Notes: generated by a model from the sequence alone, not told the origin. 64,000 bases of DNA from Alphaproteobacteria bacterium (GCA_965221125.1 CBDCRW010000004.1:960001-1024000), one strand, 5' to 3'; shown: positions 5,495 to 22,577, numbered from the stretch's first letter. Translations and numbers: made by a program.

Positions 5495-5903
5495 GCCCGG
5501 CAACGCCTCCGCATTGGATCCCGTGATCTCGGCCTACACCCGCGCCCAGGCGATCGAGGACGGCATTCTCGTCGACGTCTCCGACACCGCGCGCGAGGCG
5601 GGCTTCACCATCCCCGTCGCGCTCACGCGCTCGGTCTGGAACCGGCTCGTCGCCCTTCCCGAGGGGTACCGCGGTTTCCAGGACGAGCGCGGCCGGCTCT
5701 GGGACGTCCTCTGGATGGCGCGCCACTACGCGCTCCGCGCCTCCAACAGCGACCGCGTGACCATGTGCGTGCTGGTGCGCGACATCCGCAAGGATCTCCG
5801 CGACAGCCACCGGCCGCCCCGCAAGCACTTCCCCATCGTGGCGATCGGCGCCGGCGACGAGGGTCGGGCCGCAATCACCATCATGTTCCCCGAAGACGAC
5901 TGA
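5487..5903 (+). CDS. DUF6573-like MGE protein
   Basis: YTRAQAIEDGILVDVS ... QDERGRLWDVLWM ... ITIMFPED signature. GGAGG RBS. Confidence 0.7.
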   Translation: MPEPGNASALDPVISAYTRAQAIEDGILVDVSDTAREAGFTIPVALTRSVWNRLVALPEGYRGFQDERGRLWDVLWMARHYALRASNSDRVTMCVLVRDIRKDLRDSHRPPRKHFPIVAIGAGDEGRAAITIMFPEDD

Positions 5904-6077
5904 GCGCGCCTTCCCCCTGGTGTCTCCGGCACCACCAGGAGCGGAGGCCGGCTCCGGTCGGGCGAGCGGCGCGGAACCTGGAGGACTCCGGCGCCGCCTC
6001 CCGCTCTCCTTCGGCGCCCCGCCGCGGTCTGTCCTCCCGCGGCGGGGCGTTTCCATTCCCCGTCATGGAGCCGTGCC

Positions 6078-6422
6078 ATGTCTCATTCCAGCGCCGCCCT
6101 CGCGATCCCCGATCTGCCTCCCGCACCGCACCGGGCCATGCACCCCATGGACCCGCGCCGGGGCGAGAACCTCTCGCCGATGTTCGCCGCATTCCTGTGC
6201 TGGCTGCTGGTCCTGGAACCGATGACCGACCCCGCCATCACCGGCATCGCCGTCTCCGGCAACTCCGTTCTGGCGGCCACGACCGACGATCCGCTCTTCG
6301 ACGCCCATCTCGGGGCGCTGGAGGAATTCGAGCGCAACCTGCGTGGCTGGGGCCAGGTCTGCGGCGCCGACCCGCACATGATCGATGCGCTGGTGGCCAG
6401 ACTCCAGAGCGCCGGGCGATGA
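6078..6422 (+). CDS. Hypothetical protein
   Basis: GGAG RBS and ATGA overlap with radC. Confidence 0.6.
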   Translation: MSHSSAALAIPDLPPAPHRAMHPMDPRRGENLSPMFAAFLCWLLVLEPMTDPAITGIAVSGNSVLAATTDDPLFDAHLGALEEFERNLRGWGQVCGADPHMIDALVARLQSAGR

Positions 6423-7162
6423 GCCTCTCCGATGCGCCCGCTCCCGGCCTGCGCGACGTGACGCCGTTCCCCGCGCCCGCAGTGCAGCACCCCACCGGCA
6501 CCGGTCACGACGACCTGCAAGCGCGCCTCCTCCGCGCCGGGCGCGAGGCCGTCGACGACCGGGAGCTTCTCCAGCTCCTGCTCGCAGGGTCGCACCCCGC
6601 CGCCGAAGCCCGGGATCTCGCCGGGGTCCTGCTCGACACCTTCGGCTCGCCCGCGCGCGTCCTCGCCGCCAGGACCGACACGCTCCGCGCCGTGGCCGGA
6701 CTCGGCGAAGCCGGCATCGCCGCAATCAAGACCGCCGAAGCCCTCGGCATCGCGATGGCCAGGGCCGCGCTGCCCGAGAGATTCCATCCCCAGCTCGCGA
6801 CCTACGACAAGGTCGTCGAGTATTGCCGCACCCTGGCGGCGCACCGCGACGTCGAGGAGTTCCGCGCGTTGTACCTCGACACCAAGAACCGGCTGATTCG
6901 CGACGAGCTGCTGCAGACCGGCACGGTCAACCACACCCCCGTCTATCCCAGCCAGGTCTGCGTCCGCGCGCTGGAGGTCGGCGCGTCCGCCCTCGTCGTC
7001 TTGCACCCGCACCCGTCTCAGGATCCTACACCGTCCAGGGCGGACGTAGAGATGACCGCCCGCCTGCGCGACGCCCTCAAGACCATCGACGTCGATCTCC
7101 ACGACCATATCGTCGTCGCGCCGAGCGACGCCTTCAGCTTCCACACCAAAGGCCTGCTCTGA
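6419..7162 (+). CDS. radC: RadC-family JAB-domain protein
   Basis: ELLQLLL, HhH segment (VAGLGEA), E.F..LYLDTKNRLI, GTVNHTPVYP, JAB motif HPHPS...PS.AD and DHIVV. Confidence 0.9.
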   Translation: MSLSDAPAPGLRDVTPFPAPAVQHPTGTGHDDLQARLLRAGREAVDDRELLQLLLAGSHPAAEARDLAGVLLDTFGSPARVLAARTDTLRAVAGLGEAGIAAIKTAEALGIAMARAALPERFHPQLATYDKVVEYCRTLAAHRDVEEFRALYLDTKNRLIRDELLQTGTVNHTPVYPSQVCVRALEVGASALVVLHPHPSQDPTPSRADVEMTARLRDALKTIDVDLHDHIVVAPSDAFSFHTKGLL

Positions 7163-7419
7163 AGCGCCCCGGCCCCATCATCCGCCCGGCGCGCCGTCCG
7201 GGCGACCAGGCCGCAGCCCAGACCGCAGCCCTCCGACCGGCCCGCCCCTTCCTTCCCGAACCTGTCCACCCCACCCCGCTGCCAATCTGCTCCGCCGCCG
7301 CACCCCACCACGGAAGGAGGTCGGCCAGCCGGCCGGGGGCAGTCCGGCGGGGCGGGGCGGAGTGATGCTTCGCGTCCAGCCTGCGCCGGTTCCATGCAAT
7401 TCAAGCACGGAGCCTGCTC

Positions 7420-9584
7420 ATGCTCGACGCCCACCCGGCGCCGGATGCCCCCGCGCGTCCGCCCGCCCCCGTCCCCGCCATTGCCGAAGCCGCCGAACCG
7501 CAGCCCCCCTCCGCGCCTGCCGCGCTGCTGACCGCGGCCCGCACCATACTCCCGGTCCTGGAGACCGGTTGGGCGCTGGATGCCCGCACGATGCGCGAGG
7601 CGATGACCTCCGCTTTCGGCGCCTCCGACACGGACGGCGCCTGGATCTGGAAGGATTCCTACGAGGCGGCCGAGGCGGCGCTGGTGCTCTTCCTCCAGCG
7701 CTACGGCCGCGCCATGCGGCGCGAGGCCGGTGCAGGTCCGGCCGGACCCACCGCCATGCTGCGCATGCTGGAGATCCTGGCGGCCCTGGAGCCCTCGCAG
7801 ACCAGGCGCTCAGAGGAGCAGCTCAGGTATCAGCAGTTCTCGACGCCGCTGCCCCTGGCCTACGCGGCGCTGCAGGCCGCCATGATCCGGCCCGGCGACG
7901 TCGTGCTCGAACCCTCGGCCGGCACCGGCATGCTGGCCGTCATGGCGCAGCTTGCGCTCGGCAACGGAGCCGCCGGCGCGCTTCACCTCAACGAGATCAC
8001 CGCCACGCGCGCGGGCCTTCTCGCGGGCCTCTTCCCCGGCTGCACCGTCACCCGCCACAACGCCGAGTCCATCAGGGACCGGCTGCCCGAGCTGCGGCCC
8101 ACCGTGGTGCTGATGAACCCGCCCTTCTCGGCCAGCCCCGGCGTGGACCGCATTCGCCATCACGTCGATCTGCATCACATCCGCTCGGCCGTCTCGATGC
8201 TGCCGCCGGGCGGGCGGCTGGTGGCAATTTCTTCCTCGCACTGCGTCCCCGGCGATACCGCGTGGGCGGATGCCTTCGCATCGCTCGACCCGCCGGCCCA
8301 TGCGGTGTTCACCGCCCCCATCCACGGCCGCGCCTACGCACGGCGCGGCACCACCTTCGACACCCGCCTCACCGTCCTCGATCGGGGAGGCGAGAAGCCC
8401 GCGCGGGTCTATGCCGGCCACCCCGTGCGCGACGCCGGCCACCTGTTGCAGGCGGTCACCGGCACCGTGCCGGCGCGGCGCCCCATCGAGCCGGTGCCGG
8501 GCGCGGATCTATTCGGTCAGGCGCCGGCGCCGTCGAGACGGCCCCGGCCCACGCGAGCGAAACGGACCCGGACCGCCCCGGAAGAGGCGCGGCCCCACGA
8601 CTGGGGGGTTGTGTCCGAACTTGCCTACCAGGCGGTGCCGGCCGGCGCCGGTTCCGCCGGGGCCGCGCAGCCCTCCGGTCCCTACGCACGATGGCAAGCA
8701 TCCGGCATCCACGTGCCGGGCGCGGTCGAGCACCCGACGCCGCTGGTGCAGTCCGGCGCCATGGCGGCGGTGGCGCATCCCATGCCGTCCTACCGCCCCA
8801 TGCTGCCCGAGAAAGTGGTGGCCGAGGGGCTGCTGTCCGACGCCCAGCTCGAGAGCGCGGTCCTCGCCGGCCAGGCGCACGAGTGCCATCTCGCCGCCGA
8901 GTACCGCATCGGTGCCGGCTGGGAGACGGTGCAGCGCGTCGACGTCGACGCCGACGGCGACAGCGATGAATCCGCTTCCGCCTCCGAAGACGACGGCAAG
9001 ACCGTCGACCCCGACGAGCCGCTGTCCGAACCGGTCCGCTTTCGGCGCGGCTGGATGCTGGGCGACGGCACCGGATGCGGCAAGGGCAGGCAGGTCGCCG
9101 CCATCGTCCTCGACCAGTGGCTCCGAGGCCGGAAGCGGGCGCTCTGGCTCTCCCAGTCCGACAAGCTGCTGGAGGACGCGCGCCGGGACTGGTGCGCCGT
9201 CGGCGGGCGCGCCGAAGACGTCATCCCCCTCGGCAAGGTCCGCCAGGGGGCCGACATCCCGCATGCCCAAGGCATCCTGTTCGCCACCTATGCCACGCTG
9301 CGCTCCCCCGCCCGGCAGGGCAAGCCCTCGCGCCTCGACCAGATCGTGGCCTGGCTCGCGGACGGCGACGGCGAGCAAAAGCGCCACGCATACCAGGGCG
9401 TCATCGTCTTCGACGAAGCGCACGCGATGGCCAACGCGGCGGGGTCGAAGGGCTCGCGCGGCGAGGTGAAGCCCTCGCAGCAGGGACGTGCGGGCCTGCG
9501 GCTGCAGAACGCGCTGCCCGATGCCCGTATCCTCTACGTCTCCGCCACCGGGGCCACCACCGTCCCCGGCCTCGCCTACGCGCG
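7420..9584 (+). pseudogene. Methyltransferase + strawberry-notch SF2 helicase, 5' part (interrupted by the serine-recombinase element)
   Basis: QQFSTP, VLEPSAGTG and NPPFS (N6-MTase); LSDAQLE, LGDGTGCGKGRQ, DEAH and SATG (strawberry notch). Joining 7420-9584 to 12976-15331 gives 4521 nt, an open 1506-aa frame reading ...TTVPGLAYA-RRLGLWASGETPF... Confidence 0.9.
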
Positions 9585-9599
9585 AGAGTACGCTTCATA

Positions 9600-11675
9600 C
9601 TACACCTCATCTATTCCTGTGGGGGCAAGGTTGCAGCTCGGTTTGCGCAGAGACAGCTTTCGCCCCGGTTGTTTGGTCGGCGGAGGGTCGGGAATCTCGT
9701 ACAAGTAGTCGGATCCGCCGGTGTAGGCGTGTCCGCGCAAGAGCCCGGCCTTGCGCCATTGGTTGACTGTGCCGACGGAGACCGCGAGGCGCTCGGCGGC
9801 CTCGTTGACCGTCAACAGCCCGCGATCGCGCAGCCGTTCATAGCGTGGCTTGAGAGCGTAGTTCGCTCGCAGCACCCCCACCAACTTCGGGGTAAAGGCG
9901 TGGCCGTAACCGCTTCGGTATCCGCGCTCGTTGAGGATTTTGGCGATCTCGCCATAGTTGTGGTCGTTCAACAGGCTGTCGACCTCGGCGACGATCTCGG
10001 CCTTGGTCTTGAAGGTCTCACATCCGAGAGGATCCGGCGCCCAGGTGAGCTGGCGGGTCGCGCCGCCGCGCAGACGCACCCCCAGGCTCCGCGTGGCCCT
10101 GGTCAGCGTCACGTCCTCGATCAGCAGCCGCGCCATCCGCTTGCGCTCGCGGTGCGGCGTCGCAGGATCGTTCCACAGGCGGGGGAAGTCGCTGGCCAGC
10201 GCGAGGATTCGCTTGCGTTGCCCTTCGTCCAACCCCTGGCCCGGATCCGCGCGGCTGCGCTCGAGCTCTCGCTGCGCCTCGTCCAGCGTCCGAAGCTTCG
10301 CGTTCCACTCCGCCTCCAGCACGTCGGCTACTATCCGGTTGTCGGGATGGGTCTGCATGAACCTCTGCCGCGCCAGGTCCGCTTCCTCGCGGGCGCGCTG
10401 CACTCGCTGAGCGCGCCACAGATCGGCCTCCTCGGCGCGCGCGGTGAGTTCGTCCTGCACCTGCAACGCCACCTCCAGCGTCAACGGCGTCATCAGCTCC
10501 ACCAGCAACTCGCCGACCGCGCGGTCGATGGCAGCGCCGGGGATGCTCTGACACCAGGCGCTCGCCGTCTGCGCACCTTCATGGCTGCACAGGTAGTAGG
10601 GGTGCAGCTCCTTTGATTTTTGCTTGTAGTAGCGCACCCCCATGCTCCGGCCGCACACGCCGCAGACAGCCAGTCCCTGCAGCAGTGCCGGCCCCTCGCG
10701 TGGGGGAGGGCGGCGCTCCGCGCCGCGCGCTCGGGCAGCATTGTTGTCGCGAAGCTGGCTCTCGTTCTGTTCGAACCGCTCCCAGGTGATGTAGCCCGGG
10801 TGCGCATCGCGCAGCTCCACCATCCATTCCTCACGTGGCAGACGTTGGGTCTCGACACCGCCGCCGGGACGCCGCCGGCTGCGGCTGCGCCCGTACGCGT
10901 AAGCGCCGGCGTATCGCGGATTGCGCAGCACTCGCAGTGCCCGCGCGAACCTCAGCGGCTTCCAATGCAGCTCGCCCTTGTGCGGCCCGTGGAGAGGACG
11001 GTAGGGGAAAAGCAGGTTCTCGGCCCTGAAATACTTGACCGTGGCATTAGCCGAGCCGAGCCGGGTGAAGGTATCGAAGAACAGGCGCAGGCTATGCTGC
11101 ACTTGTTCGTCGGGGTCGAGCACCACGTTGCCGAGCGGGTCATAGACCAGTCCCACCGGCAGCGGCAACTTCAACTCCCCACGCTTGGCCGCGTTCAGCG
11201 TCCCACCGCGCAGCCGGGCGCGCATCATGTGCAGCTCCGCTTCCGACATGGTCCCTTTGAGCCCGAGCAGGAGCCTGTCGTTGAAGTCTCCTGGATTGTA
11301 GAGGCCGTCCTCGTCGAGGATCAGCGTCTCGCTCAGGTCACAGATCTCGACCAGCCGATGCCACTCGGTGGAATTGCGCGCGAGCCTTGACACCTCGAGC
11401 CCGAGCACGATCCCGGCCCGGCCCAAGCTGACGTCGGCGACCAGACGCTGGAAGCCTTCGCGGTCCTTGTCGGCGCCGGACAGGCCCTGATCGCAATCGA
11501 TCACGACGACGTTCTCGGTCGGCCAGCCCAGGGCCACGGCCCGCTCGCGCAGCGCGTACTGGCGGCGCGTGCTCTCGCCATGTTCGAACACCTGGCGCAC
11601 GGTGGACTGACGCACGTACAGGTAAGCATCGCGGCTCAGGTGGTTCGCGCTCACCTTCTGATAGGCAGTGCTCAT
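9600..11675 (-). CDS. Large serine recombinase (resolvase + recombinase + zinc-ribbon domains)
   Basis: AYLYVRQST catalytic Ser, D.G.SG, LEVSRLARN, NPRYAG, CGVCG...YLC Zn ribbon, coiled coil and C-terminal HTH. ATG 11675 follows GAAGGAGA. Confidence 0.95.
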   Translation of the reverse strand: MSTAYQKVSANHLSRDAYLYVRQSTVRQVFEHGESTRRQYALRERAVALGWPTENVVVIDCDQGLSGADKDREGFQRLVADVSLGRAGIVLGLEVSRLARNSTEWHRLVEICDLSETLILDEDGLYNPGDFNDRLLLGLKGTMSEAELHMMRARLRGGTLNAAKRGELKLPLPVGLVYDPLGNVVLDPDEQVQHSLRLFFDTFTRLGSANATVKYFRAENLLFPYRPLHGPHKGELHWKPLRFARALRVLRNPRYAGAYAYGRSRSRRRPGGGVETQRLPREEWMVELRDAHPGYITWERFEQNESQLRDNNAARARGAERRPPPREGPALLQGLAVCGVCGRSMGVRYYKQKSKELHPYYLCSHEGAQTASAWCQSIPGAAIDRAVGELLVELMTPLTLEVALQVQDELTARAEEADLWRAQRVQRAREEADLARQRFMQTHPDNRIVADVLEAEWNAKLRTLDEAQRELERSRADPGQGLDEGQRKRILALASDFPRLWNDPATPHRERKRMARLLIEDVTLTRATRSLGVRLRGGATRQLTWAPDPLGCETFKTKAEIVAEVDSLLNDHNYGEIAKILNERGYRSGYGHAFTPKLVGVLRANYALKPRYERLRDRGLLTVNEAAERLAVSVGTVNQWRKAGLLRGHAYTGGSDYLYEIPDPPPTKQPGRKLSLRKPSCNLAPTGIDEV

Positions 11676-11974
11676 GCCAACTCTCCTTCCATATGGCCCT
11701 TGAGCATCGCGAGAAGAATGTCGATCAGCGACTTCTCGACCCCGCCGGGCAGCGGCTCGGTCGAGGCGCCGGCGCAAACGGCGGCCGGCGGGGCGGGCAA
11801 CTCGGCCACGGCGTGCAGCCAGGCCGCGACGCCGCGCAACGCCACCACGGCAAGCCCGTGACGGTTGTGCTCTGTGCCGGGCTCGACCGCATGACGGCGC
11901 AGCCGCTCGTAGCCGTCCCCATAGGCGGAATGTTCCAGCGGGAGCAGCCCGGCGAGCGGCGGCCGGCACTTCAT
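11672..11974 (-). CDS. Small accessory protein of the recombinase element (~100 aa)
   Basis: YERLR...GLAVVALRGVAAW motif. It has ATGA overlaps with the HTH gene upstream and the recombinase downstream. Confidence 0.7.
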   Translation of the reverse strand: MKCRPPLAGLLPLEHSAYGDGYERLRRHAVEPGTEHNRHGLAVVALRGVAAWLHAVAELPAPPAAVCAGASTEPLPGGVEKSLIDILLAMLKGHMEGELA

Positions 11975-12432
11975 CGGCTTTTTTTTACCTGCGCGAGCAT
12001 GCGGCCGATGCTGCGGCGATGGATGGTGATGCCAAAGCGCGCGCGCACCAGATCGACCAGCGCGGCGGCGGTCAACTCCGGCTGTTCGCTCTTCGCCGCG
12101 AGCAGCGCCTCGACCACCTCGTCGCTGAGCTTGTGGCGTCGGCGGGGTCCCGGCTTCTCCGGCAGCAGGCCCGGCAGCCCGCCCGCATCGTAGGCGCGCT
12201 GCGCCTGGTACCAGGTGGGCCGCGAGACGCCGAAGCTGGCCGCGGCGTGGCTCACCGGCACGCCGTCCTCGCGCACACGGCGCAGCATCTCGTACCTGAC
12301 CTGGACCAGGTCGCGCGGGTCGAAGAACGCGTTGGACAGGAACAGCTCGTCGCGCACCGTCTCCGCGTTCGGGTTGAGGCAGCCGTGCTCCTTGAGGGAG
12401 CGGGTCTTGGCGTCGGCGGGGCGTCTGGCCAT
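11971..12432 (-). CDS. Helix-turn-helix protein (IS630-like HTH region) of the recombinase element
   Basis: FFDPRDLVQVRYEMLRRV, AAASFGVSRPTWYQ, GLPGLLPEKPGPRRRHKL. Confidence 0.85.
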   Translation of the reverse strand: MARRPADAKTRSLKEHGCLNPNAETVRDELFLSNAFFDPRDLVQVRYEMLRRVREDGVPVSHAAASFGVSRPTWYQAQRAYDAGGLPGLLPEKPGPRRRHKLSDEVVEALLAAKSEQPELTAAALVDLVRARFGITIHRRSIGRMLAQVKKSR

Positions 12433-12614
12433 TGCGTGGGCTCCGGCGGCGGAGGAATGTAAGTATATTTATGCACACCCCTGGCATCGCATCAAACCCT
12501 TTCTTGCCCCATATCGACGAAAACAGGCCGAAATACCGTGTATATTGGTCGATCATGACCGCCCTTCCAGTCCATACGACAACCTCCGACCGCCAGGTAT
12601 GGACAAAAACGCTC

Positions 12615-12923
12615 TTACACATGCGGCAAAATCTCCTTGACACCGCTCGCGCCGCCGGCCGCCTCCTTTCCAACCCTCTCGCCGCCGCCCAAGCCATCCA
12701 GCAACGCCGACAACGTCAGCAGATCCGAGACACGGAACGCCGACCGGCCCGCCGCTACCCGCGCAAACGGATCCACCGCTGCAACGCTGGTAAAAGCCTG
12801 ACGAATCGTGCGCAGCGTCCCGTCGTCAGCCGTGTAATGGACCAGCCCCACCCCAAGCATCGACGTGGTCTCGATCAGTTCGAACTCACGTCCGAGAAGA
12901 GGATGAAACGGGTGCGTCACCAC
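12615..12923 (-). CDS. DUF5372 (Y4bD/Y4pK-like) protein; its native 5' end appears to sit at the other end of the element
   Basis: VTHPFHPL.G.EFE ... DPF...GRSAFR..DLL.L signature. The only local start is GTG with no visible SD (see findings). Confidence 0.75.
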   Translation of the reverse strand: MVTHPFHPLLGREFELIETTSMLGVGLVHYTADDGTLRTIRQAFTSVAAVDPFARVAAGRSAFRVSDLLTLSALLDGLGGGERVGKEAAGGASGVKEILPHV

Positions 12924-12975
12924 AAAGCGTTGCTGCTCAACGCATGAACGACGTGCAGTTGAAAGCCTGGTGCCG

Positions 12976-15331
12976 GCGCCTCGGACTCTGGGCCTCCGGC
13001 GAGACCCCCTTCGAGACCCGAACGGCCTTCGTCGCCGCCATGGAGGCCGGCGGCGTGGCGGCGATGGAGGTGGTGGCCCGCGACCTCAAGGCTTTGGGTC
13101 TCTACCAGGCCCGGGCCTTGAGCTACGACGGAGTCGAGGTCGACATCCTGGAACATCCGCTCACGCCGGAGCAGCGGCGCATCTACGACTCCTATGCGGG
13201 CGCCTTCAAGATCATCCACGCCAACATCCAGGATGCGCTGAAGGCGACCGGCATCGTCGACGGAGAGGCCACCCTCAACAAGAACGCCAAGTCCGCCGCG
13301 ATTTCGGCCTTCGAGGGCGCCAAGCAGCGCTTCTTCGGCCATCTGCTGACCTCCATGAAGTGCCCCTCGCTGATCCGCGCCATCGAGGCGGACCTCGACG
13401 GCGGACGGTCGGCGGTGGTGCAGCTGGTCTCCACCGGCGAGGCGCTGATGGAGCGGCGCATCGCGGAGATACCGGCCTCCGAGTGGGACGACCTCTCCAT
13501 CGACCTGACGCCCCGCGAGTACGTGCTCGACTTTCTCGAGCACGCCTTTCCGGTGCAGCTGCAGGAGCCCTTCGAGGACGATGACGGCAACCTCATGTCG
13601 CGCCCCGTCTTCGATGCCGACAACAACCCGGTGCTATGCCAGGAAGCCCTGGCCAAGCGCGACGCCCTGATCCAGAAGCTCGGCGCTCTGCCGCCGGTGC
13701 AGTCGGCGCTGGACCAGATCGTTCACCGCTTCGGGCACGACGCCGTGGCCGAGATCACCGGGCGTTCGCGCCGGGTGCTGAGGATCGAGGACGCGAAGGG
13801 CGAGCGCCTCGCGCTCCGATCGCGGCCCGCCTCCGCGAACTTGGCCGAGACCGCCGCCTTCATGGACGGGAGCAAGAAGATCCTGGTGTTCTCGATGGCG
13901 GGCGGCATCGGGCGCAGCTACCACGCCGATCTCGGCTGTCCCAATACCGAGCGCCGCATCCACTACTTGCTGGAGCCCGGATGGCGGGCCGACCAGGCGA
14001 TCCAGGGGTTGGGCCGGACCCATCGCACGCACCAAGCGTTCGCGCCGCTCTTCCGTCCCGTCGCCACCGACGTGAAGGGCGAGCGCAGGTTCATCGCCAC
14101 CATCGCGCGCAGGCTGGACAGCCTGGGCGCCATCACGCGGGGACAACGGGATTCCCAGACCGCCATGGGGGGCGACGACACCGCGCTGTTCAGGGCCAGC
14201 GACAACCTGGAGAGCCTCTACGCCAAGTCGGCGCTCAGGCAGTTCTACATCGCGCTTTGGCGGGGCCACATCGCGGGCTGGTCACTCAAGGACTTCGAGG
14301 AGGCCACCGGGCTCAAGCTCACTTACGAGGGCAACCTCAAGGAGGACCTGCCGCCCATGCCGCAGTTCCTCAACCGCCTGCTGGCGCTTCCCATCGACGA
14401 GCAGAACCAGCTCTTCGCCGCGCTCGAGACCCGGATCGAGGCCAACATCGAGATCGCCATCGAGGCCGGCACCTTCGAGCGCGGCGTCGAGACCATCGTT
14501 GCCGACTCTCTCTCGGTCGCCAGCCGCGAGTCCGTCTTCACCCACGACGGCTCCGGCGCCGAGACCGAGATCGTCGAGATCGCGCGCAAGGACCGGCTGG
14601 AGCCTCTCGCCGCCGATGCCGCCATCGAGCTCCACGCGACCACCTCCAGCAACCCGCCGCTTCTCATCGTCAACGCCCAGTCGAAGCGTGCGGCGCTGGT
14701 CATGGACGCGCCCGCGCGCACGCTCGACGACGGGGACGTGCAGGAGCGCGTGCGCCTGGTGCGTCCCGCCGCCCGAGAGACCATGGCCAGGGCGGCGCTG
14801 GAGGCCTCGCAGTGGCGCGCCGCCGGCGAGCACCGCTGGCGGGCCCTCTGGGACGCGGAGATCGCGGGCCTGCCGGCGCACCGCGAGTCCCGCTTCTGGC
14901 TGGTCGCCGGCCTGCTGCTGCCGATCTGGGATCGCCTGCCCGAAGAGAGCATGCGGGTCCGCCGCCTCGTCTGCGACGACGGCGAGCACCTGATCGGCCG
15001 CGTGCTCGGTCCCGCCGAGGTCACCCAGTTTCGTGCCGCGCTCGGTCTCGACGGCGGCCCCGGCCTCACCGCCGCCGAGGTCCACGACGAGATCATGAAA
15101 TGCGGCGCTTCCTTCCATCTCTCCAATGGCTGGAAGCTCGCGCGCCGCCGCCTGATGGGGGCCAACCGTATCGAGATCGTGGGCCCCACGGACGGCGATA
15201 CCGACGCGCTCAAGCGCATGGGCTGCATCGCCGAGATCGTCTCGTGGCGCACCCGACTGTTCGCGCCCGACCGCGAAACCCTGGAGCGCATCGTGGACCG
15301 CTGGTCCATCGCGGCGCCCGAGACGTCCTGA
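12976..15331 (+). pseudogene. Strawberry-notch helicase, 3' part
   Basis: RLGLW, MEVVARDLK, VAEITGR, GRSYHAD, LEPGWRADQAIQGLGRTHRT and GERRFIATIARRLDSLGA. This continues the 7420 gene. Confidence 0.9.
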
Positions 15332-15424
15332 CATCCTGCCGCCGGCGCCGATCCGCCGCACGGCGCACGTTGCCGCCCGCATCCGCGCGGGCGGCTCCGC
15401 CCCACCGCAACAAGGACATATTCG

Positions 15425-15685
15425 ATGACCACGCACGAGCTACCCGAGGAGCCGGTCTACGCCTTCGCGCCCTCCTACGAGCTGCCCGACCAGCCGCAGC
15501 AGATCCGCATCGTCTTCGAGGGAATGGACGGCTACATCCCCACCGCGCTCGTAGCGCTCACTCTCGCCGATGCGGAGCGGCTGTGCGACAGGCTTAACCG
15601 GCGCCTCGGACTCGACCGCGACGCCTGGAGCCGGCTGGTCGCCCGATCCATGGCCACAGGTCCCCGCGACGAGACCCTGCACTGA
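15425..15685 (+). CDS. Hypothetical protein
   Basis: AAGGA RBS and GC3-rich codons. Confidence 0.6.
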   Translation: MTTHELPEEPVYAFAPSYELPDQPQQIRIVFEGMDGYIPTALVALTLADAERLCDRLNRRLGLDRDAWSRLVARSMATGPRDETLH

Positions 15686-15858
15686 GAATTCGATCGTGGC
15701 CCGTCGTGCGTCCGGTCATGGCCCCACGGGCAAGCGAAAGTGGATCGAGCCGACTGGACGCTGCCGCCCGACAGCCGCCGAAGTACCACCCGCTTGCCCG
15801 ATGTCATATGCAGAAGTAAAAATGTACGACATTCCAACTCATGCCGCGCGAGGACGCC

Positions 15859-16152
15859 ATGCCCCTGGTCACCGTCAAGTCGAAGTTCCAGGTCACCATT
15901 CCCGCCAGACTGCGAAAGGGCATCGATCTTCGTGAGGGCGACATCATGGAGGCGACCCTCGTCGGCGACGGCATCCTCTTCCGCCCCAAGCAGGTGGTGG
16001 ACCGCGACGCGGCCGCCGACCGCATCGCGGCCGCGCTCGCCTCAAGACCGCCCTTGCCCGAGGACATCGGACGCTCCGAAGACGAGATCATGCAGGACGT
16101 CATCGCCGATATCGACGAATCGCGCCGGGAACGCCGCAGCCGTGAGACATGA
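15859..16152 (+). CDS. AbrB/MazE-type antitoxin
   Basis: VKSKFQVTIPARLRKGIDLREGD...DGILFRP. GAGGA RBS before ATG 15859 and ATGA overlap with the PIN gene. Confidence 0.85.
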   Translation: MPLVTVKSKFQVTIPARLRKGIDLREGDIMEATLVGDGILFRPKQVVDRDAAADRIAAALASRPPLPEDIGRSEDEIMQDVIADIDESRRERRSRET

Positions 16153-16541
16153 CGGTCGTCCTCGACTGCAACGTCATCGTGTCGGCGGCGCGCATCGACG
16201 GCACCTGCCGGGCAGTCGTCGACAACGTGGTACGGAACCACGATATCGTCCTCTCCGAGCCCGTCCTGGCCGAGTACAAGTCCGTCGCCGCACGGCCCAA
16301 ACACGCTGCCTACCGCGATGACTTGAAAGCGATGATCGGCGACATCGAGCGTGTAGCCGTCATCGTCGAGCCCTCCGATATCGCGTTCGGACTGCGCGAT
16401 CCCGACGACGAGATCTATCTCGCCACCGCGATGGCCGGCGGCGCCGTTCTGATCACGGGCAACACGCGCGACTTCACCGAGCCGCGATACGCGACGGTCG
16501 AGGTGCTCTCTCCACGCGCCTTCCTCGATCGGACCGCGTGA
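16149..16541 (+). CDS. PIN-domain (VapC-like) toxin
   Basis: VVLDCNVIVSA, RDPDDEIYL, LITGNTRDF, SP..FL. Confidence 0.9.
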   Translation: MTVVLDCNVIVSAARIDGTCRAVVDNVVRNHDIVLSEPVLAEYKSVAARPKHAAYRDDLKAMIGDIERVAVIVEPSDIAFGLRDPDDEIYLATAMAGGAVLITGNTRDFTEPRYATVEVLSPRAFLDRTA

Positions 16542-16817
16542 ACGGCGCCGCTGCGGACTCACGCCCCCTCCCTGCCAGCCTCTGCCCGCCGCGCCCCTAC
16601 CGGCGCGCTCATCCCGCGCTTTGGCGGTCTCGTTCCTGCACGCAGGACACGCATTGCCGATCCGTGACCCGGCCGCGCCGCACCTGTCCCACCTGCCGGC
16701 GACGGCTGCTCCCCTCCCCGGCGATCCGACGAGCGCCGTCGCCGCTATCGCGGACCCGCGAGGAGAGTGGGTGACGAGCTTCCTTCGGGTGAAGCCATCC
16801 GAGGAGGGAGAGAACCC

Positions 16818-17363
16818 GTGACTCAGCTCGTCTATGCCGGCATCGGATCGCGCGCCACGCCATCGTCCGTGCTCGAAGTCATGACCACCATGGCCGCCTG
16901 GCTCGCACGCCGCGGCTGGCATCTGCATAGCGGCGGCGCGGCGGGGGCCGACACGGCCTTTGCGGCGGGAGCCCCGGCCGAGTGCCGTTCCGTGTTCCTG
17001 CCGTGGCCCGGATACCGCGGGAACGCGGGACCCGACTGCTGCACCCTCTCGCCCAACCGGATGCGCACCTGCCTCGCCATCGCCGCCGATCTGCATCCCG
17101 CATGGCACCGCTGCTCGCCCGCGGCGCGGAAGCTCCACGCCCGGAACGTGAGCATCCTCGCGGTGGACACCGACACGCCCGTCCATGCCGTGGTGGCGTG
17201 GACCGTCGGCGGAGCGGTGCGCGGCGGCACCGGGATGGGCATCCGCATCGCGCACGATCGCGGTATTCCCGTGTTGAACCTCGGCGTGCTCCACCCCCGT
17301 GCCGTGTGCGAGCGGTTGGAGGAGATCCGCGCCGCGGCATTCCCCGACACCCGCCGCGCCTGA
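16818..17363 (+). CDS. SLOG-superfamily (DprA-like) protein
   Basis: YAGIGSR.TP, SGGA.GADTAF, HPAW, LHARN and GGTG.GIRIA. GTG start after a GGAGGGAG RBS. Confidence 0.75.
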   Translation: MTQLVYAGIGSRATPSSVLEVMTTMAAWLARRGWHLHSGGAAGADTAFAAGAPAECRSVFLPWPGYRGNAGPDCCTLSPNRMRTCLAIAADLHPAWHRCSPAARKLHARNVSILAVDTDTPVHAVVAWTVGGAVRGGTGMGIRIAHDRGIPVLNLGVLHPRAVCERLEEIRAAAFPDTRRA

Positions 17364-17395
17364 TCCGGCCCCCCCCTGGAAGATGGGAGCATGCC

Positions 17396-18115
17396 ATGAT
17401 CCGTTTCACGCACGGCGATATCTTCGCCCAGCCTGTCGAGGCCATCGTCAATCCCATCAATTGCGTCGGCGTCGCAGGCGCCGGCCTCGCCCTCCAGTTC
17501 AGGCGCCGCCACCCCGACGCCTTCCTCGCCTACCGCCGCGCCTGCGCTGAGGACCGGCTGCGGCCGGGCCGCATGTTCGTGTTCGACACCGGCCGCGACA
17601 GCCCCCGGTGGATCGTCCACTTCCCCACCAAGCGTCACTGGCGCGACCGCAGCGCGATCGGCGACATCGAGGCCGGGCTGCGCGGCCTCGCCGCGGCCCT
17701 CGCCGGCCGCGGCATCCGCTCCATCGCCATCCCGCCACTCGGGTGCGGGCTGGGCGGTCTCGACTGGCGCGCTGTGCGCCCCCTCGTGACCGCCTGTCTC
17801 GCGGACCTGCCGGGCACGGTCATCGTTCTCGAGCCGGCGCCGGAGGCGGAGCCGCGCGCAGGTGCGGGCGTCCGCTTACGGGAGGAGAGAGAGCCCATGA
17901 CGCGCGATACCACGAGCATCTTCGACCACGGCGCCACGCTGGTGCCCGATATCATCACCGAGGCCGAGGAGGAGCGCATCCTGCTGCGCATCTCCCAGGC
18001 GCCCTGGATGACCGACCTCAGCCGCCGCGTTCAGCATTACGGCTACCGATACGACTACAGGGCGCCGGGCAACGGCCGCCACGCCCCGGCTCCGCCCTTC
18101 CCGCGGTGGGCCACT
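17396..18115 (+). pseudogene. Macrodomain (DarG-like) in frame with the 5' part of an AlkB-family 2OG-Fe(II) dioxygenase; interrupted by the RIT element
   Basis: Macro motifs GDIF, AIVNPINCVGVAGAGLALQF, FPTKRHWR and SIAIPPLGCGLGGLDW. There is no stop before the AlkB part (internal ATG 17897 with a GGAGGAG RBS; RRVQHYGYRYDY). Confidence 0.85.
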
Positions 18116-18196
18116 AATGTGCTGGTGGACCATATGTTGCGGTCAGCCCGGTACCCCCCGGCCAGCGCGGAGAGGCCCGGAATCACCGCAACATTA
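18114..18196. repeat. RIT left inverted repeat (83 bp)
   Basis: Perfect reverse complement of 21444-21526. Confidence 0.92.
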
Positions 18197-18254
18197 TTTT
18201 CTCGCCAATGCTACGTGAGCATGATTGTGAGACCTGCAACAGGGAGCCACAATC

Positions 18255-19505
18255 ATGTTCGAAGAACTCTTCTCAGTTCCTCACGTCATCGAGAGATACC
18301 GCGTAGCAGCACTTGTCGAAGACCGGCTGCGATATCTCCAGCATCTAAAGGACACAGGTTCCGGTCGAAGAACCTTGAGGGACAACGCAATCAACCAACT
18401 CAGCTTGGTGCGCCTTCTCGATTTGAAAGATGGCGATAGAGTAAGTGTCCGCGAAGTCGAGCTCGCGGCAGCGAAGTGGTCGCAACCGGGAGGGCGTAGA
18501 TGGAAACGGGCCGCTTCATCCAAGAGCAAGTCAAGGTTTACGCATCACGCGCTCCAATGGTTACGTTTTCTTGGCGCGCTCGACGAACCCGATAACGTGC
18601 GTCATCCCTATGGTGACGAGGTTGCGGTATATCAGCAGTGGATGCGCGAAGAGCGCGGATTGTCCGAACAGACAATCCGCACCCAACTATTCAACGTCAA
18701 GATCTTCTTCGATTGGTTGGCGGTCAGTGAAACACCACTAGCTTCTGTTAAGGTGACCGATATCGACTCTGCCATTGCGGCGAGGCATGCTCAGGGAACC
18801 TGCAATCGAAGGACGATACACGACTACGCCCGACATCTAAAAAGCTTCATTCGTTTCGCCGAGGACCGTAGCTGGTGCAGGCCAGGAATGGCCAAGGGCA
18901 TAAGGCCACTAAGGATGTATCCCGACGAGACAGTGCCGAAAGGGATTAGTCGAACAAATGTCCTGCGCTTGCTGGAGACCACCGAAGGTAACCGGCCAGT
19001 TGACAAGCGCGACCGCGCTATTCTGATGCTGTTGATCGCCTACGGGTTGCGGGCTGGTGAAGTTAGTGCCCTACGCCTCGATGACCTTGACTGGGAAAAG
19101 GAGACCTTGACGGTCCGGCGTTCGAAGTCGGGGCGAACAAATCTCTATCCCCTTTCCCGAGGCGTCGGACAAGCGACCCTCCGCTACATCCTCGAGGTCC
19201 GTCCCAAGCGTCCTGAACGCACCCTCTTCTTCACCCTTGTAGCCCCTATTCGACCGGTCACCCCGGGGGCGTTGTGGGAAATCGTCAGCAAACGTTTAGG
19301 GAGCCTGGGTATTGTAACTGGACCCCGGGGACCGCACGCTCTGCGGCATGCGGCGGCCCAGCATCTTCTTGACCAAGGCATGTCGATGAAGGTGATTGGA
19401 GATTTTCTGGGACACCGTGACCCTGACTCCACCGCAACCTACGCCAAAGTGAATCTTTCCGCCCTTCGGGAAGTGGCTGACTTCGACTTGGAGGGCCTGG
19501 CATGA
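18255..19505 (+). CDS. Tyrosine recombinase (RIT A)
   Basis: RDRAILMLLIAYGLRAGEV, HALRH, LGH and TYAK. Confidence 0.95.
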   Translation: MFEELFSVPHVIERYRVAALVEDRLRYLQHLKDTGSGRRTLRDNAINQLSLVRLLDLKDGDRVSVREVELAAAKWSQPGGRRWKRAASSKSKSRFTHHALQWLRFLGALDEPDNVRHPYGDEVAVYQQWMREERGLSEQTIRTQLFNVKIFFDWLAVSETPLASVKVTDIDSAIAARHAQGTCNRRTIHDYARHLKSFIRFAEDRSWCRPGMAKGIRPLRMYPDETVPKGISRTNVLRLLETTEGNRPVDKRDRAILMLLIAYGLRAGEVSALRLDDLDWEKETLTVRRSKSGRTNLYPLSRGVGQATLRYILEVRPKRPERTLFFTLVAPIRPVTPGALWEIVSKRLGSLGIVTGPRGPHALRHAAAQHLLDQGMSMKVIGDFLGHRDPDSTATYAKVNLSALREVADFDLEGLA

Positions 19506-20446
19506 AACTTCGGGACGCAATCTCTCAGTACATCGAATGGCGACGAGTCCACGGCGCCAAGTTCGAAACCGGTGCCATCACCCTCAACCTGTTTCTAAGG
19601 AGCGTCAATGCGGACATTGACTGTGACGCTGTCACGCGGGCGCAGATCTGCGCATTCCTTGCGGGCGATGGCCGACTTACCCGAAATCGGGAGAACAAGT
19701 ACGGCGCGCTAAATGGATTTTATCAGTTTGCGACTAGCCGCGGATACGCAAGTTCTTCGCCGCTGCCGGACAACGAACCGAGACCTCCAAAGTCAGCACG
19801 GTCTTACATCTTCTCTCGCGATGAGATTCGGCGCATGTTCGACGCTATAGAGTTTAGCCGGCGACATGCGCTGCAGTTAGATGCGGATACCTTCCGCACT
19901 CTGCTTCTGCTTCTTTACGGAACCGGTCTAAGGGGCCAGGAGGCCCGGAAGCTCACGGTGGCGGACGTTGACTTGTCGGCTGCAGTGCTCACCGTGCGTA
20001 ACACTAAGTTCTTCAAGAACCGCTTAGTACCAGTCGGACCGCAACTCAACGGTGCGTTGAAAACATATGCGGTGAAGCGTGCAACTCGATCGTTCCCGCA
20101 GGGGAGAGATTCCGCCTTTCTGGCAAATCGGGACGGAACGCCGCTGCATAAAGATACGATACAGTGCGCCTTTGCCGGGCTGCTTCGCACAGCAGGGATA
20201 CAGGGAACGGACGGTACATGCCGACCTCCGTGCCTTCATGCCTTCAGGCACACCTTCGCCGTACACAGGCTGACAGAGTGGTATCGGAAGGGCGCGGATG
20301 TGCAGCGGCTGTTGCCGTATCTCTCCACTTATCTCGGCCATTCAGAGCTGGCCTACACCCAAGTCTATCTTCCAATGACGCCGGAGCTTCTGCATGAAGC
20401 GGCGCTCCGCTTGGAACGCTATCTGCGGGGAGGGAACGATGAATAA
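19502..20446 (+). CDS. Tyrosine recombinase (RIT B)
   Basis: LLYGTGLR, TKFFKNRLVP, HAFRHTFAV and LSTYLGH...T.VYL. Confidence 0.95.
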   Translation: MKLRDAISQYIEWRRVHGAKFETGAITLNLFLRSVNADIDCDAVTRAQICAFLAGDGRLTRNRENKYGALNGFYQFATSRGYASSSPLPDNEPRPPKSARSYIFSRDEIRRMFDAIEFSRRHALQLDADTFRTLLLLLYGTGLRGQEARKLTVADVDLSAAVLTVRNTKFFKNRLVPVGPQLNGALKTYAVKRATRSFPQGRDSAFLANRDGTPLHKDTIQCAFAGLLRTAGIQGTDGTCRPPCLHAFRHTFAVHRLTEWYRKGADVQRLLPYLSTYLGHSELAYTQVYLPMTPELLHEAALRLERYLRGGNDE

Positions 20447-21434: not shown

Positions 21435-21443
21435 CCCAGAAAG

Positions 21444-21526
21444 TAATGTTGCGGTGATTCCGGGCCTCTCCGCGCTGGCCGGGGGGTACCGGGCTGACCG
21501 CAACATATGGTCCACCAGCACATTAG
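21444..21526. repeat. RIT right inverted repeat (83 bp)
   Basis: Perfect reverse complement of 18114-18196. Confidence 0.92.
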
Positions 21527-21528
21527 AA

Positions 21529-21554
21529 GCCAAATGTTGCGCGCAACATTTGGC
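21529..21554. repeat. 26-bp perfect palindrome at the RIT right end
   Basis: GCCAAATGTTGCGCGCAACATTTGGC is its own reverse complement and carries the same ATGTTGCG motif as the IRs. Confidence 0.9.
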
Positions 21555-21558
21555 CACT

Positions 21559-21915
21559 GTCATCGGCGATCGGCTGGCGCCGTACTTCGACGGGGCCATG
21601 CCCGAGCAGTGCATCGTCAACGAGTACCGCCCCGGCCAGGGCATCGGCATGCACGCCGATCACAGTTCGTTCGGCGACGTGGTGGTCTCGCTCTCGCTTG
21701 GCGACGCCTGGACGATGAACTTCCGGCCCCGTTCGGCCCGCCCCTACGTCCGCGAGGGGCTGGCGTCCGACGAGGTGGCGCTGCTTCCCCGCCGCTCCGC
21801 CCTTGTCCTGCGCGGACCCGCCAGGAGCGCCTTCATGCACGGGATCGATCCCGCCGCCAACGCCAGCCGCACCGAGACGCGCGTCTCTGCGACATTCCGG
21901 ACGCTCTCCCGGTGA
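21559..21915 (+). pseudogene. AlkB-family dioxygenase, 3' part
   Basis: QCIVNEY.PGQGIGMHAD (HxD), VVSLSLG, LPRRS.LVL.G.AR, HGI and RVSATFR. Confidence 0.9.
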
Positions 21916-22096
21916 TCACCACCGCCGTTTTCGTCCGTGCCGCAGGCAAGGTCGTCGGCCACCCGGCGGGCCTCGGAGCAGGCGGCAGACGAGAGTGAAG
22001 GGAGGCTTGGAGAAGGTGAGCAGGGCGGGGCCGAGGAGAGGCTCCAGCCCGCTCGTCAACCTTCGTCATCAACTCGAATCGCAAGGAGACACGATC

Positions 22097-22540: not shown

Positions 22541-22577
22541 GCGAAGGGTTTAGCGGGCTTCTCCCTTCCGCTGGCCT

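Follow-up and report, generated by a model that had tools for sequence, protein, structure and literature searches.

In this study, we describe a mobile element of 3391 bp that divides one of its own genes between its two ends: a start codon preceded by a Shine-Dalgarno (SD)-like motif lies at one end, and the start-less body of a DUF5372 gene lies at the other. This anatomy and its conservation in related elements, which number dozens and are spread over many bacterial phyla, are shown here; expression from the excised circle, binding of the product to the recombinase, which rests on a model only, and the function of the protein are inferred. On balance, and without circle, transcript or protein data, we favor the view that DUF5372 is a recombinase cofactor made only in the circle, its expression depending on the state of the element.

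The element lies in a stretch of 64,000 nucleotides from an Alphaproteobacteria bacterium (hereafter the window), at positions 9583-12975, with one CG at each end. Besides a large serine recombinase (LSR), it contains DUF5372, an HTH gene and a 100-aa ORF (Table 1). It interrupts a gene for a Strawberry-notch-like helicase. The first-pass annotation of the window had claimed that removing the element restores the helicase frame, and this holds when 3391 nt are deleted and one CG is kept, which yields a single ORF of 1506 aa, but not when 9583-12975 is deleted literally, as these 3393 nt include both CGs and their loss breaks the frame (stop at codon 923). The AAA_34 match is truncated at profile position 234 of 306 in the 5' part of the host gene and covers positions 236-305 in the 3' part, which also matches Helicase_C_4 (E 3.8e-89), and in the restored ORF, as in relatives on contigs that lack the interruption, two residues separate the AYA motif from LGLW. 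The source genome holds three copies of the element, 100% identical and inserted in three different targets with unrelated flanks, the constant sequence starting and ending with CG in all of them, which gives independent support for the element boundaries. That the element is IS-like and is moved by its LSR through an excised circle belongs to the reading as a whole, and we consider it the more probable interpretation, again in the absence of circle data.

Table 1. Features of the element and of the interrupted host gene (positions counted from the first nucleotide of the window)
Feature	Position	Strand	Remarks
Host gene, 5' part: methyltransferase-like N-terminus and AAA_34 P-loop	7420..9582	+	AAA_34 E 7.5e-78
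Crossover dinucleotide CG, left copy	9583..9584	none	Constant in 3 genome copies, flanks differ
P' arm of attachment site	9585..9610	-	Core GTGTAGT 9605-9599; GAGGTG 9608-9603; ATG 9598-9596
Large serine recombinase, 691 aa	9600..11675	-	Resolvase, Recombinase, Zn_ribbon_recom and C-terminal HTH_17
100-aa ORF, unknown family	11672..11974	-	Position conserved in close relatives
HTH protein, 153 aa	11971..12432	-	HTH_32, HTH_23, HTH_28, HTH_29
AT-richer intergenic gap	12433..12614	-	53% G+C, against 66% for the element
DUF5372 body	12615..12973	-	PF17342 E 4.4e-21; frame open from crossover to stop
P arm of attachment site	12948..12973	-	Mirrored core ACTGCAC 12959-12953; read as codons of the N-terminal extension
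Crossover dinucleotide CG, right copy	12974..12975	none	3 genome copies; dinucleotide match in related loci
Host gene, 3' part: rest of AAA_34 and Strawberry-notch C-terminal helicase domain	12976..15331	+	Profile matches

Read on the minus strand, the left end consists of GAGGTG, the recombinase stop TAG (9602-9600), a single T (9599) and the ATG, with 11 bases between the latter and the CG at 9584-9583. At the right end, the DUF5372 frame is open from the CG (12975-12974) down to a stop at 12615. When the two ends are joined across one CG, the result is a 3391-bp circle with an uninterrupted ORF of 124 aa, in which the GAGGTG and ATG (9608-9596) are in frame with the DUF5372 body; the crossover separates codon 5 from codon 6, and attP is thus inside coding sequence. 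The core of the P arm stands 14 nt from the crossover and 42 nt ahead of the Thr codon of a THPFHP motif. The sequence features described in the first-pass annotation were all present, and its junction peptide was reproduced exactly. Its statement that integrated DUF5372 has only a GTG without SD sequence held for the window copy, whose sole internal starts are two consecutive codons, GTG GTG (12923-12918); as read off the sequence, the region 5-12 nt ahead of them lacks a purine-rich stretch.

The arrangement is conserved well beyond the window. We surveyed 79 related loci together with the three copies of the source genome; in 56 (53 of the 79, plus the three) the recombinase reaches its 3' end, and 55 of these 56 carry the conserved end motif, giving 40 distinct end pairs. 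Their geometry is fixed: core motif, start codon, 11 nt, crossover, 14 nt and mirrored core motif. The fixed-position codon is ATG in 36 distinct elements and GTG in four, nothing else being found there, and in 40 out of 40 the joined frame runs in frame and without a stop up to the invariant THPFHP, while the two alternative frames contain a stop in 34/38 and 37/38 elements. The same holds for seven out of seven elements on plasmids of isolates (Sinorhizobium NGR234, Rhodococcus, Streptomyces, Aromatoleum, Chlorohelix, Bradyrhizobium and Burkholderia), one of which is a two-gene variant with DUF5372 and recombinase only. The crossover dinucleotide matches at both predicted ends in 53/55 loci; counted over distinct insertions, it is the same in 49/51, whereas none of 48 shifted pairings, used as a control, gave more than 19. 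P core and THPFHP are 42 or 39 nt apart in 74/81 loci and 45 nt apart in two isolate plasmids, the spacing being a multiple of three in every case. The proposal that the ATG is in frame with DUF5372 across the crossover therefore held, and the check suggested with it, joining the ends of related elements in silico and looking for an in-frame start near the recombinase stop, was passed. These 40 elements are not 40 independent trials, since the shared frame follows from an attachment-site geometry that all of them inherited.

An SD-like GAGG or GGAG is found at -12 to -5 in 35 of the 40 distinct elements. The three positions of GAG at -10 to -8 are conserved in 34/38, 32/38 and 36/38 P' arms, but only in 18/38, 19/38 and 20/38 at the mirrored positions of the P arm; the purine-TG is, like GAGG, specific to the P' arm, whereas the core GTGCAGT is common to both. 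Relative to the ATG, the position of the recombinase stop varies between -20 and +146 nt, so recombinase coding does not explain the start-site motif, and the claim of translational coupling to this stop proved not to be general. Being inside an arm bound by the recombinase, the ATG and GAGG of the P' arm could partly owe their conservation to DNA binding by this protein, a possibility we cannot discard.

Translation of DUF5372 from its internal GTG in the integrated state would, as the first-pass annotation had recognized, speak against the switch. Codon conservation argues that such a start is not general. The Val codon before THPFHP is GTG in 23 elements, GTC in 11, GTA in five and GTT in one, its first two positions being invariant and the third free; thus 17/40 have no GTG there, and two isolate plasmids have ATC. 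Two codons upstream of this Val there is always Phe, Val or Ile, again with a free third position, and this residue falls in strand 1 of the AF2 model, a strand that begins upstream of the GTG. Coding constraint thus extends upstream of the internal GTG, although linker codons 14-21 display no clear three-base periodicity. No ATG, GTG or TTG occurs between crossover and THPFHP in 15/40 elements; some such codon is present in the other 25, in 20 only at Val codons, that is, after a conserved residue, and in five upstream of the conserved Phe. Given the conserved upstream codons and the 15 elements without any internal start, translation is likely to begin upstream of the annotated GTG, and the internal start is no general alternative. 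We cannot rule out that a short DUF5372 is made at low level from integrated copies, the window copy having its GTG GTG.

The DUF5372 body is a clear member of PF17342 (75.2 bits against a gathering cut-off of 25; profile positions 1-77 of 78), with the domain starting at the Val codon 12920-12918. Its predicted fold is a small beta-barrel with two helices, the barrel being weakly SH3/KOW-like (E about 5e-3). The recombinase, whose ORF is uninterrupted in the integrated copy, has the domain order of a large serine recombinase (PF00239, PF07508, PF13408) and, according to NCBIfam, an excisionase-type HTH at residues 620-654; in its AF2 model, the strands of the zinc ribbon span 336-379 and are followed by a helical hairpin (397-441, 447-475) that forms a coiled coil (397-475). 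The 153-aa HTH protein, present in 73/79 related loci, is similar to the N-terminal, DNA-binding region of IS630/IS481 transposases, as judged from sub-threshold hits to this part of the IS630 and IS481 models. Pfam and NCBIfam searches with the 100-aa ORF gave no match; its NGR234 counterpart is annotated "transposase". The gap upstream of the HTH gene had been described as AT-rich and promoter-like, which is borne out in part: its composition differs as listed in Table 1, but a simple promoter scan of the integrated sequence flagged no sigma-70-type site, and its role as promoter region of the HTH-ORF-recombinase operon is presumed.

A pointer to function comes from complex prediction. The DUF5372-LSR model scored 0.71, against 0.01 for the best control, a mark attained by 58/80 solved complexes and 2/110 mismatched pairs; three runs had at least 81% of contacts in common, with a partner pLDDT of at least 66. 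This score is a model confidence, computed with our own alignments. The predicted interface involves recombinase residues 337-344, 394-413 and 482-540, corresponding in the AF2 model to zinc ribbon, base of coiled-coil helix 1 and the secondary-structure elements (helices, strands) past the coiled coil, and DUF5372 residues 21-26, 57-61 and 68-96, none of them from the N-terminal extension, so a protein started at the GTG would be predicted to retain it. DUF5372 is thus placed, by the model and without binding data, at the junction of zinc ribbon and coiled coil; the junction of DNA-binding domain 2 and coiled coil is the directionality-factor hotspot of serine integrases (PMC11795197; PMC11722253). 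SPbeta integrase-factor complexes are present in the PDB, and the score may profit from resemblance to a type of complex already solved.

All together, we propose the following model. The attP would lie within the 5' end of the DUF5372 gene, the P' arm, just past the recombinase gene, contributing ribosome-binding site, start codon and first five codons, and the other end of the element, behind the P arm, the remaining 119. In the integrated state, the DUF5372 body would have neither promoter nor ribosome-binding site nor, in most relatives, a usable start codon. Excision would unite the arms and make DUF5372 the last, translated gene of the HTH-ORF-recombinase operon, and integration would sever it again. 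Its modeled binding at the directionality-factor spot leads us to regard DUF5372 as a directionality cofactor that would be present or absent strictly according to the topological state of the element; as it would be made only when attP exists, its job would most likely be to bias the recombinase toward insertion into new targets, or against the back reaction. The suggestion of a circle-specific factor that promotes re-integration, blocks excision or captures targets thus remains an inference, to which the complex model adds its pointer. The sign of the effect is pure inference, and excision is what a canonical directionality factor would favor from this spot.

The y4bA-y4bD and y4pH-y4pK repeats of pNGR234a (Sinorhizobium fredii NGR234), a resemblance already suspected in the first-pass annotation, do have the same four genes on one strand, in the order DUF5372, HTH, small ORF and recombinase, and one plasmid homologue is annotated "Y4bD/Y4pK family protein". 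The y4bA-D copy shares the terminal arm motifs, has TT at both ends and an open joined frame, and shows GTG followed by ATG at the fixed place, overlapping the recombinase stop; it differs in its proteins (about 45% identity), in a P core 45 rather than 42 nt before THPFHP and in its TT crossover. No paper on these genes was found in the literature searched. In the SSV1-type "suicidal" integrases of archaeal viruses, attP also lies inside a gene that is whole only in the circle and split on integration (PMC8371274), but that gene is a tyrosine recombinase cut into two large pieces, whereas the gene split here is accessory to a serine-recombinase element and has just its ribosome-binding site and five codons set apart from the body. 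In the IS621/IS110 bridge-RNA elements, ICEclc (Pcir) and ICEKp1, the joining of ends activates expression of a recombination component, which makes this expression an indicator of whether the element is excised or integrated (PMC11208158, PMC13023037), and Tn4451/Tn4453 (TnpX) is reported to be a further case of a circle-junction promoter. What is assembled or repositioned in these systems is a promoter, acting on transcription of recombinase or guide RNA; in the present element, the junction supplies an ORF body with its translation start, and this ORF encodes a small protein of its own. Tn4451 and Tn5397 (TnpX, TndX) are small elements with a circular excised form, and the sites at which they insert have a central dinucleotide in common with the joint; they are Firmicute elements with cargo genes and without DUF5372, and their state switch is the junction promoter. 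The directionality factors of phiC31 (gp3), Bxb1 (gp47), TG1 (RDF) and SPbeta (SprB) resemble DUF5372 in being small and in the binding site predicted for it, although no sequence match to known factors was found. Their genes are intact in the integrated prophage and drive excision, whereas DUF5372, with start and ribosome-binding site at the other end, does not meet this criterion and is complete only after excision.

Three other readings have to be considered, all of which we regard as unlikely. In the first, DUF5372 is a canonical directionality factor that promotes excision and blocks integration, the integrated copy being locked by the split; excision would require the factor in trans from an incoming or excised copy, with positive feedback among the copies of a genome. 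The modeled binding site at the known hotspot (PMC11795197), the multiple copies per genome that would allow trans action (three here, five or more in some related genomes) and the parallel with integrases split by integration (PMC8371274) speak for it. Against it, a circle-only blocker of attP x target recombination, co-transcribed with the recombinase, would hinder insertion of the element itself, the first excision in a single-copy host is unexplained, and the two-gene variant exists, though only as a single copy. In the second, the split is merely apparent, integrated copies translating DUF5372 from the internal GTG or a near-cognate codon, and the P'-arm motifs serve recombinase binding alone. 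In its favor, the Val codon is GTG in 23/40, gene callers usually pick this GTG (proteins of about 101 aa), the modeled interface uses no residue upstream of it, and GTGCAGT, present in both arms, is clearly a protein-binding motif. However, this reading has to face the elements without GTG or any canonical start, the wobble-varying conserved codons upstream, the confinement of GAGG and purine-TG to the P' arm, and the lack of a promoter or ribosome-binding site upstream of the body inside the element, with flanks that vary between copies. The third, a circle-specific protein that is not a recombinase cofactor but a promoter repressor, a circle-maintenance factor or a target-capturing DNA-binding protein, can appeal to the weak SH3/KOW likeness, a shape common in nucleic-acid binders, and to the basic, disordered N-terminal extension, but is opposed by the wide margin of the complex model over its controls and by the occurrence of DUF5372 only beside this recombinase clade (68/79 related loci), with no match in 50,697 phage records.

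The reading we prefer thus remains that of a circle-only cofactor, and the DUF5372 split would, with expression inferred, rather probably represent a new variant of state-dependent expression. The element has the start of a gene at one end and its body at the other and, if this is true, would make the full protein only after it has excised itself.

The mobile element at positions 9583-12975 of the window carries four genes on the minus strand and separates the two halves of a host gene for a Strawberry-notch-like methyltransferase/helicase, whose AAA_34 domain is interrupted at profile position 234-236 and whose Helicase_C_4 domain lies downstream (Pfam). Three copies with 100% identity are found in the same genome, in unrelated flanks, and the part that is invariant among them has a CG at its start and a CG at its end. 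This makes the element 3391 nt long, with one CG duplicated, and the range proposed by the first-pass annotation, 9583-12975, encloses precisely that. Deletion of the 3391 nt yields a single host ORF of 1506 aa, and uninterrupted helicase relatives in assembled contigs show identical spacing at the interrupted motif. A first boundary model, 9583-12976 (3394 nt, with a shared GCG), also restored the host frame and left the joined ORF in frame; it was ruled out by the third genome copy, which differs at the last base, and only the CG crossover fits the three copies.

Coordinates and annotation of the element's features
Feature	Position	Strand	Remarks
DUF5372 ORF from GTG	12615-12923	minus	PF17342, E 4.4e-21
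Intergenic gap, richer in A+T	12433-12614	minus	53% G+C vs 66%
HTH protein	11971-12432	minus	
100-aa ORF, no family	11672-11974	minus	
Large serine recombinase, 691 aa	9600-11675	minus	Resolvase, Recombinase, zinc ribbon, C-terminal HTH

When the integrated region was scanned for promoters and terminators, no promoter-like site emerged, and the intergenic gap gave nothing of use. Residues ~620-654 of the recombinase (window 9620-9810) correspond to an excisionase-type HTH (HTH_17; TIGR01764-like, below cut-off), which might be a built-in directionality or DNA-binding module. The helicase gene itself lies among genes of mobile-element type (window 5765-25679), encoding a RadC-like JAB protein, a Macro-domain protein, two tyrosine integrases, a DUF7146-Toprim protein and a YspA-type SLOG protein.

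The DUF5372 gene appears in the window as two parts, one at each end of the element. On the minus strand, the left end reads GAGGTG (9608-9603), the recombinase stop (9602-9600), one base, ATG (9598-9596), 11 bases and CG, and beyond the second CG the DUF5372 frame is open as far as its own stop. Fusion of the ends across one CG, as in an excised circle, gives an ORF of 124 aa, and this in-silico joining reproduces the junction peptide that had been proposed before. In the integrated copy, the earliest possible start of DUF5372 is GTG GTG (12923-12918), no purine-rich stretch precedes it, and the DNA further upstream of the gene body is host sequence, different in each copy.

With the extended DUF5372 translation as query, 242 of 375 candidate proteins were matched with E ≤ 0.001. 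Most of them are called at ~101 or 81 aa, lengths which indicate that gene callers choose the Val codon or an internal Met, and the few that are called longer have a conserved upstream stretch in common. A scan of species-representative genomes confirmed 226 relatives, from which 79 distinct loci were retained, with hosts in Alpha-, Beta- and Gammaproteobacteria, Chloroflexota, Acidobacteriota, Planctomycetota, Gemmatimonadota, Actinomycetota and others. The HTH gene is present in 73 of the 79 and the recombinase lies downstream on the same strand in 68, loci without one or the other being truncated by contig ends or decayed. Left out of the counts were 26 of the 79 loci, in which the 3' end of the recombinase is disrupted, missing or beyond the contig edge, as well as L079, which has no end motif and whose recombinase match ends at residue 652 and is displaced by ~3 kb, and L028, whose motif is cut by the contig. 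In L018, L027, L059, L079 and L082 the recombinase match is split, or displaced 2.5-3.5 kb from the other genes; insertions inside the element, perhaps nested copies, are a possible explanation.

The ends of these elements share a common geometry. A motif resembling GAGGTGCAGT, followed by ATG, is found near the recombinase 3' end in almost all loci (the P' arm), and the mirrored core ACTGCAC lies 42 nt upstream of the invariant THPFHP motif of DUF5372 (the P arm), the distance being 42 or 39 nt in 74/81 loci. As each core is 14 nt from the CG in the window, the crossover of the other elements was predicted from this 14-nt spacing, the identity of the dinucleotide not being used for site choice; the P' arm was sought near the recombinase stop, with the picks for L012 and L067 taken from a separate analysis. 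The recombinase reaches its C-terminus in 56 loci, 55 of which have the end motif (the exception is L079), and in 53 of these 55 the predicted dinucleotide is the same at both ends. Counted per distinct insertion, it matches in 49 of 51, and none of 48 shifted pairings exceeded 19. In the set of 40 distinct end pairs, the dinucleotide is TT in 28, CG in 6, TG in 2, and TC, AG, CT or TA in one each, and L031 is a contig of 3333 nt whose start and end fall exactly at the dinucleotide. A choice of P' arms that gave credit for identical dinucleotides was discarded, as it missed real sites and made spurious picks in seven loci (L013, L015, L018, L029, L035, L043 and L067). The two exceptions to the matching ends, L007 and L009, belong to one genome (OZ241969.1), have ends TT/CG and CT/CG, and lie in repeated contexts, with one flank common to each other or to L008 and L041; the mismatch looks like the outcome of copies recombining with each other or of insertion into a repeated target.

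The first-pass annotation had claimed that the start codon of the P' arm rejoins the start-less DUF5372 body only in the circle, and had proposed that the ends of DUF5372-recombinase elements be joined and the frame examined. This was done here and the result was supportive in 40/40 distinct end pairs: the start at the fixed position is ATG in 36 and GTG in 4, and the joined frame is stop-free up to THPFHP in all of them, while the two alternative frames contain a stop in 34/38 and 37/38. The start is preceded by GAGG or GGAG at -12 to -5 in 35/40. The GAG at -10 to -8 is matched, position by position, in 34, 32 and 36 of 38 P' arms and in 18, 19 and 20 of 38 at the mirrored P-arm positions; the core GTGCAGT is common to both arms. 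The position of the ATG relative to the recombinase stop varies from 20 nt before it to 146 nt after it, and recombinase coding therefore does not account for the motif. For the same range (-20 to +146 nt), strict translational coupling of DUF5372 to the recombinase stop, which had also been suggested, is not general. The distance from the start to the mirrored core is 30 nt, and that from the core to THPFHP is 42, 39 or 45 nt. Since the spacing is fixed, the frame relation represents one inherited architecture rather than 40 independent coincidences; the informative points are that all length variants are multiples of three, that no stop has arisen, and that the start changes only between ATG and GTG.

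Could DUF5372 be translated from the internal GTG instead? The Val codon before THPFHP is invariant at positions 1-2 and free at position 3 (GTG 23, GTC 11, GTA 5, GTT 1), and in two isolate plasmids ATC takes its place. Two codons upstream of it there is always Phe, Val or Ile, again with a free third base; this codon, ~50 nt from the crossover, is beyond a normal half-site, and the AF2 model (mean pLDDT 75) places it in the first beta strand. Between the crossover and THPFHP, no ATG, GTG or TTG exists in 15 of the 40 elements; these codons occur solely at the Val codons in 20 and further upstream in 5. On the other side, no clear three-base periodicity was seen at linker codons 14-21, which counts against a start upstream of the GTG.

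The same arrangement is found in plasmids of isolates. Of 103 plasmid records matched by tblastn, chiefly of rhizobia and Burkholderiaceae, 66 are conjugative plasmids, and one homologue is annotated as a 'Y4bD/Y4pK family protein'. Cultured hosts of related elements include Sinorhizobium fredii NGR234, Aromatoleum aromaticum EbN1 and isolates of Paraburkholderia or Caballeronia. In the seven isolate elements examined, the joined frame is in frame and stop-free without exception. Plasmid pNGR234a has the same four genes; at the fixed place GTG is followed by ATG, in an overlap with the recombinase stop, and each end has TT. In pRHL1 of Rhodococcus jostii RHA1 (L088), the standard spacing gives CG versus TT at the ends, and a P arm longer by 6 nt, a multiple of three, gives TT at both ends together with a 6-base direct repeat; the joined frame is open under either. 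A Chlorohelix plasmid (NZ_CP128402.1; L091, 4464-6890 of the locus) carries a two-gene variant of ~2.4 kb, with DUF5372 and the recombinase only. Its arm motifs are the same, TT is present at each end, and no further copy was found on this plasmid or elsewhere in the plasmid collection. These two genes may thus be the core of the family, although this is a single copy of unknown activity. According to record coordinates, the annotated start of DUF5372 is GTG in pNGR234a and Bradyrhizobium, an internal ATG in Burkholderia, an ATC codon in Aromatoleum, and in Chlorohelix a TTG formed partly by the crossover.

Some observations concern the targets. The identical copy L003 (contig 4 of the same genome, ~1.074-1.078 Mb) has split a TrwC-type relaxase gene within the conserved histidine motif, and its flank matches PF08751 (E 1.7e-39) as far as profile position 285 of 286; with the helicase, two of the three copies thus lie in conserved motifs of conjugation-type genes. 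For the third copy (L001, contig 6), no Pfam match was obtained in the target. In several TT-type relatives (L040, L043, L051, L056, L057, L062, L068 and others), the reconstructed empty sites show a target stretch that resembles the conserved Asn-Gly-Lys-x-Glu-Arg region of DDE transposases. By Pfam, an rve domain ends at the insertion in the L057 and L068 flanks; the remaining flanks gave HTH domains only (L043, L051), a ParA-type ATPase (L056), DUF772 (L062) or no match (L040). The 26-nt TT-type target sites have TCG in common ~12 nt before the crossover, and the HTH protein of the element resembles the DNA-binding N-terminus of transposases of this DDE kind.

No read, transcript or peptide evidence exists for the circle or its junction; the anatomy and its conservation are what the sequences show, and the remainder is inferred. 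Logan contigs of four runs (X1, X5, X6, X8) contain joints that skip ~3393-3396 nt and correspond to uninterrupted helicase genes. Some of them have other letters at the site, for instance two A's where the window has G and C, and they are likely to be uninterrupted paralogous helicase genes without the CG crossover rather than excision products. No left-end-to-right-end joint appeared among the contig joints examined, and contigs cannot show absence; in metagenomes, a search for both arm cores set at the spacing of the junction returned three matches, none related to any of the four proteins. In the open-access literature, subscription journals and supplements being outside the scope, we found nothing on DUF5372, the y4b/y4p genes or this element family, nor any description of a translation start joined to a recombinase-cofactor gene body across attP. 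Genes are also split by integration in SSV1-type integrases (PMC8371274), and the joining of ends leads to state-dependent expression in IS621/IS110 (PMC11208158) and in ICEKp1 and ICEclc (PMC13023037), where it acts through promoter assembly or switching, as it does in Tn4451 (title in the reference list of PMC13023037).

The DUF5372 protein is modeled as a small barrel with two helices. Foldseek against the PDB returned weak matches only, to the KOW/SH3-like barrel of ribosomal protein eS4 (E ~5e-3), a resemblance that provides no functional lead, and no DUF5372 match was found among 50,697 phage records. A complex model of the recombinase with DUF5372 passed, with 0.01 for the best control and a score of 0.71, a mark reached by 58/80 solved complexes and 2/110 mismatched pairs. 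As our own alignments were supplied (28 sequences for the recombinase, 44 for DUF5372), these benchmark counts are only roughly valid, and, since SPbeta integrase-factor complexes are present in the PDB, part of the score may be owed to similarity with a complex of a known type. The runs agreed in at least 81% of contacts, with partner pLDDT of at least 66. Recombinase residues 337-344, 394-413 and 482-540 form the modeled contact, which in the AF2 model correspond to the zinc ribbon, the base of coiled-coil helix 1 and elements after the coiled coil. On the DUF5372 side, it includes THPFHP and the GRSAFRV-helix region and excludes the N-terminal extension. That same domain junction is the hotspot for directionality factors of serine integrases (PMC11795197; PMC11722253).

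Serine integrases are one-way enzymes whose direction depends on small cofactors, unrelated to one another and difficult to identify. In the proposed mechanism, operon transcripts in the circle would cross the joint into DUF5372, the strong Shine-Dalgarno sequence and start of the P' arm would direct its translation, the protein is predicted by the model to bind the recombinase, and insertion would cut the gene again. If a factor is produced solely in the circle, only reactions of the circle stage are open to it, and we therefore favor, by inference, a role of DUF5372 as an inverse directionality factor that promotes insertion or prevents the back reaction, the direction of the effect not having been shown. 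The main rival, less favored, is that DUF5372 is a canonical excision factor supplied in trans. A bolder form of the inverse-directionality reading, which we judge less likely than not, adds a topology-sensing gene: excision would proceed without DUF5372, the recombinase acting unaided or with help from its own excisionase-like C-terminal domain, from the HTH protein or from the small protein, only the circle would make DUF5372, and insertion would reset the system.

If the inverse-directionality reading is true, a complete two-state transposition cycle would be governed by a gene split across attP, with the attachment site doubling as first codons and the presence of the cofactor tied to the physical state of the DNA rather than to a regulatory circuit. 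It would provide a natural, self-limiting 'integrate-only' cofactor for serine integrases, with a new cofactor fold, and a candidate self-extinguishing integration helper for genome engineers. It would also explain the disagreement of annotation pipelines over DUF5372 gene starts, as well as how so minimal an element, with the same operon always expressed, first leaves and then re-enters DNA, and a widespread protein family whose function is unknown would acquire a named one.
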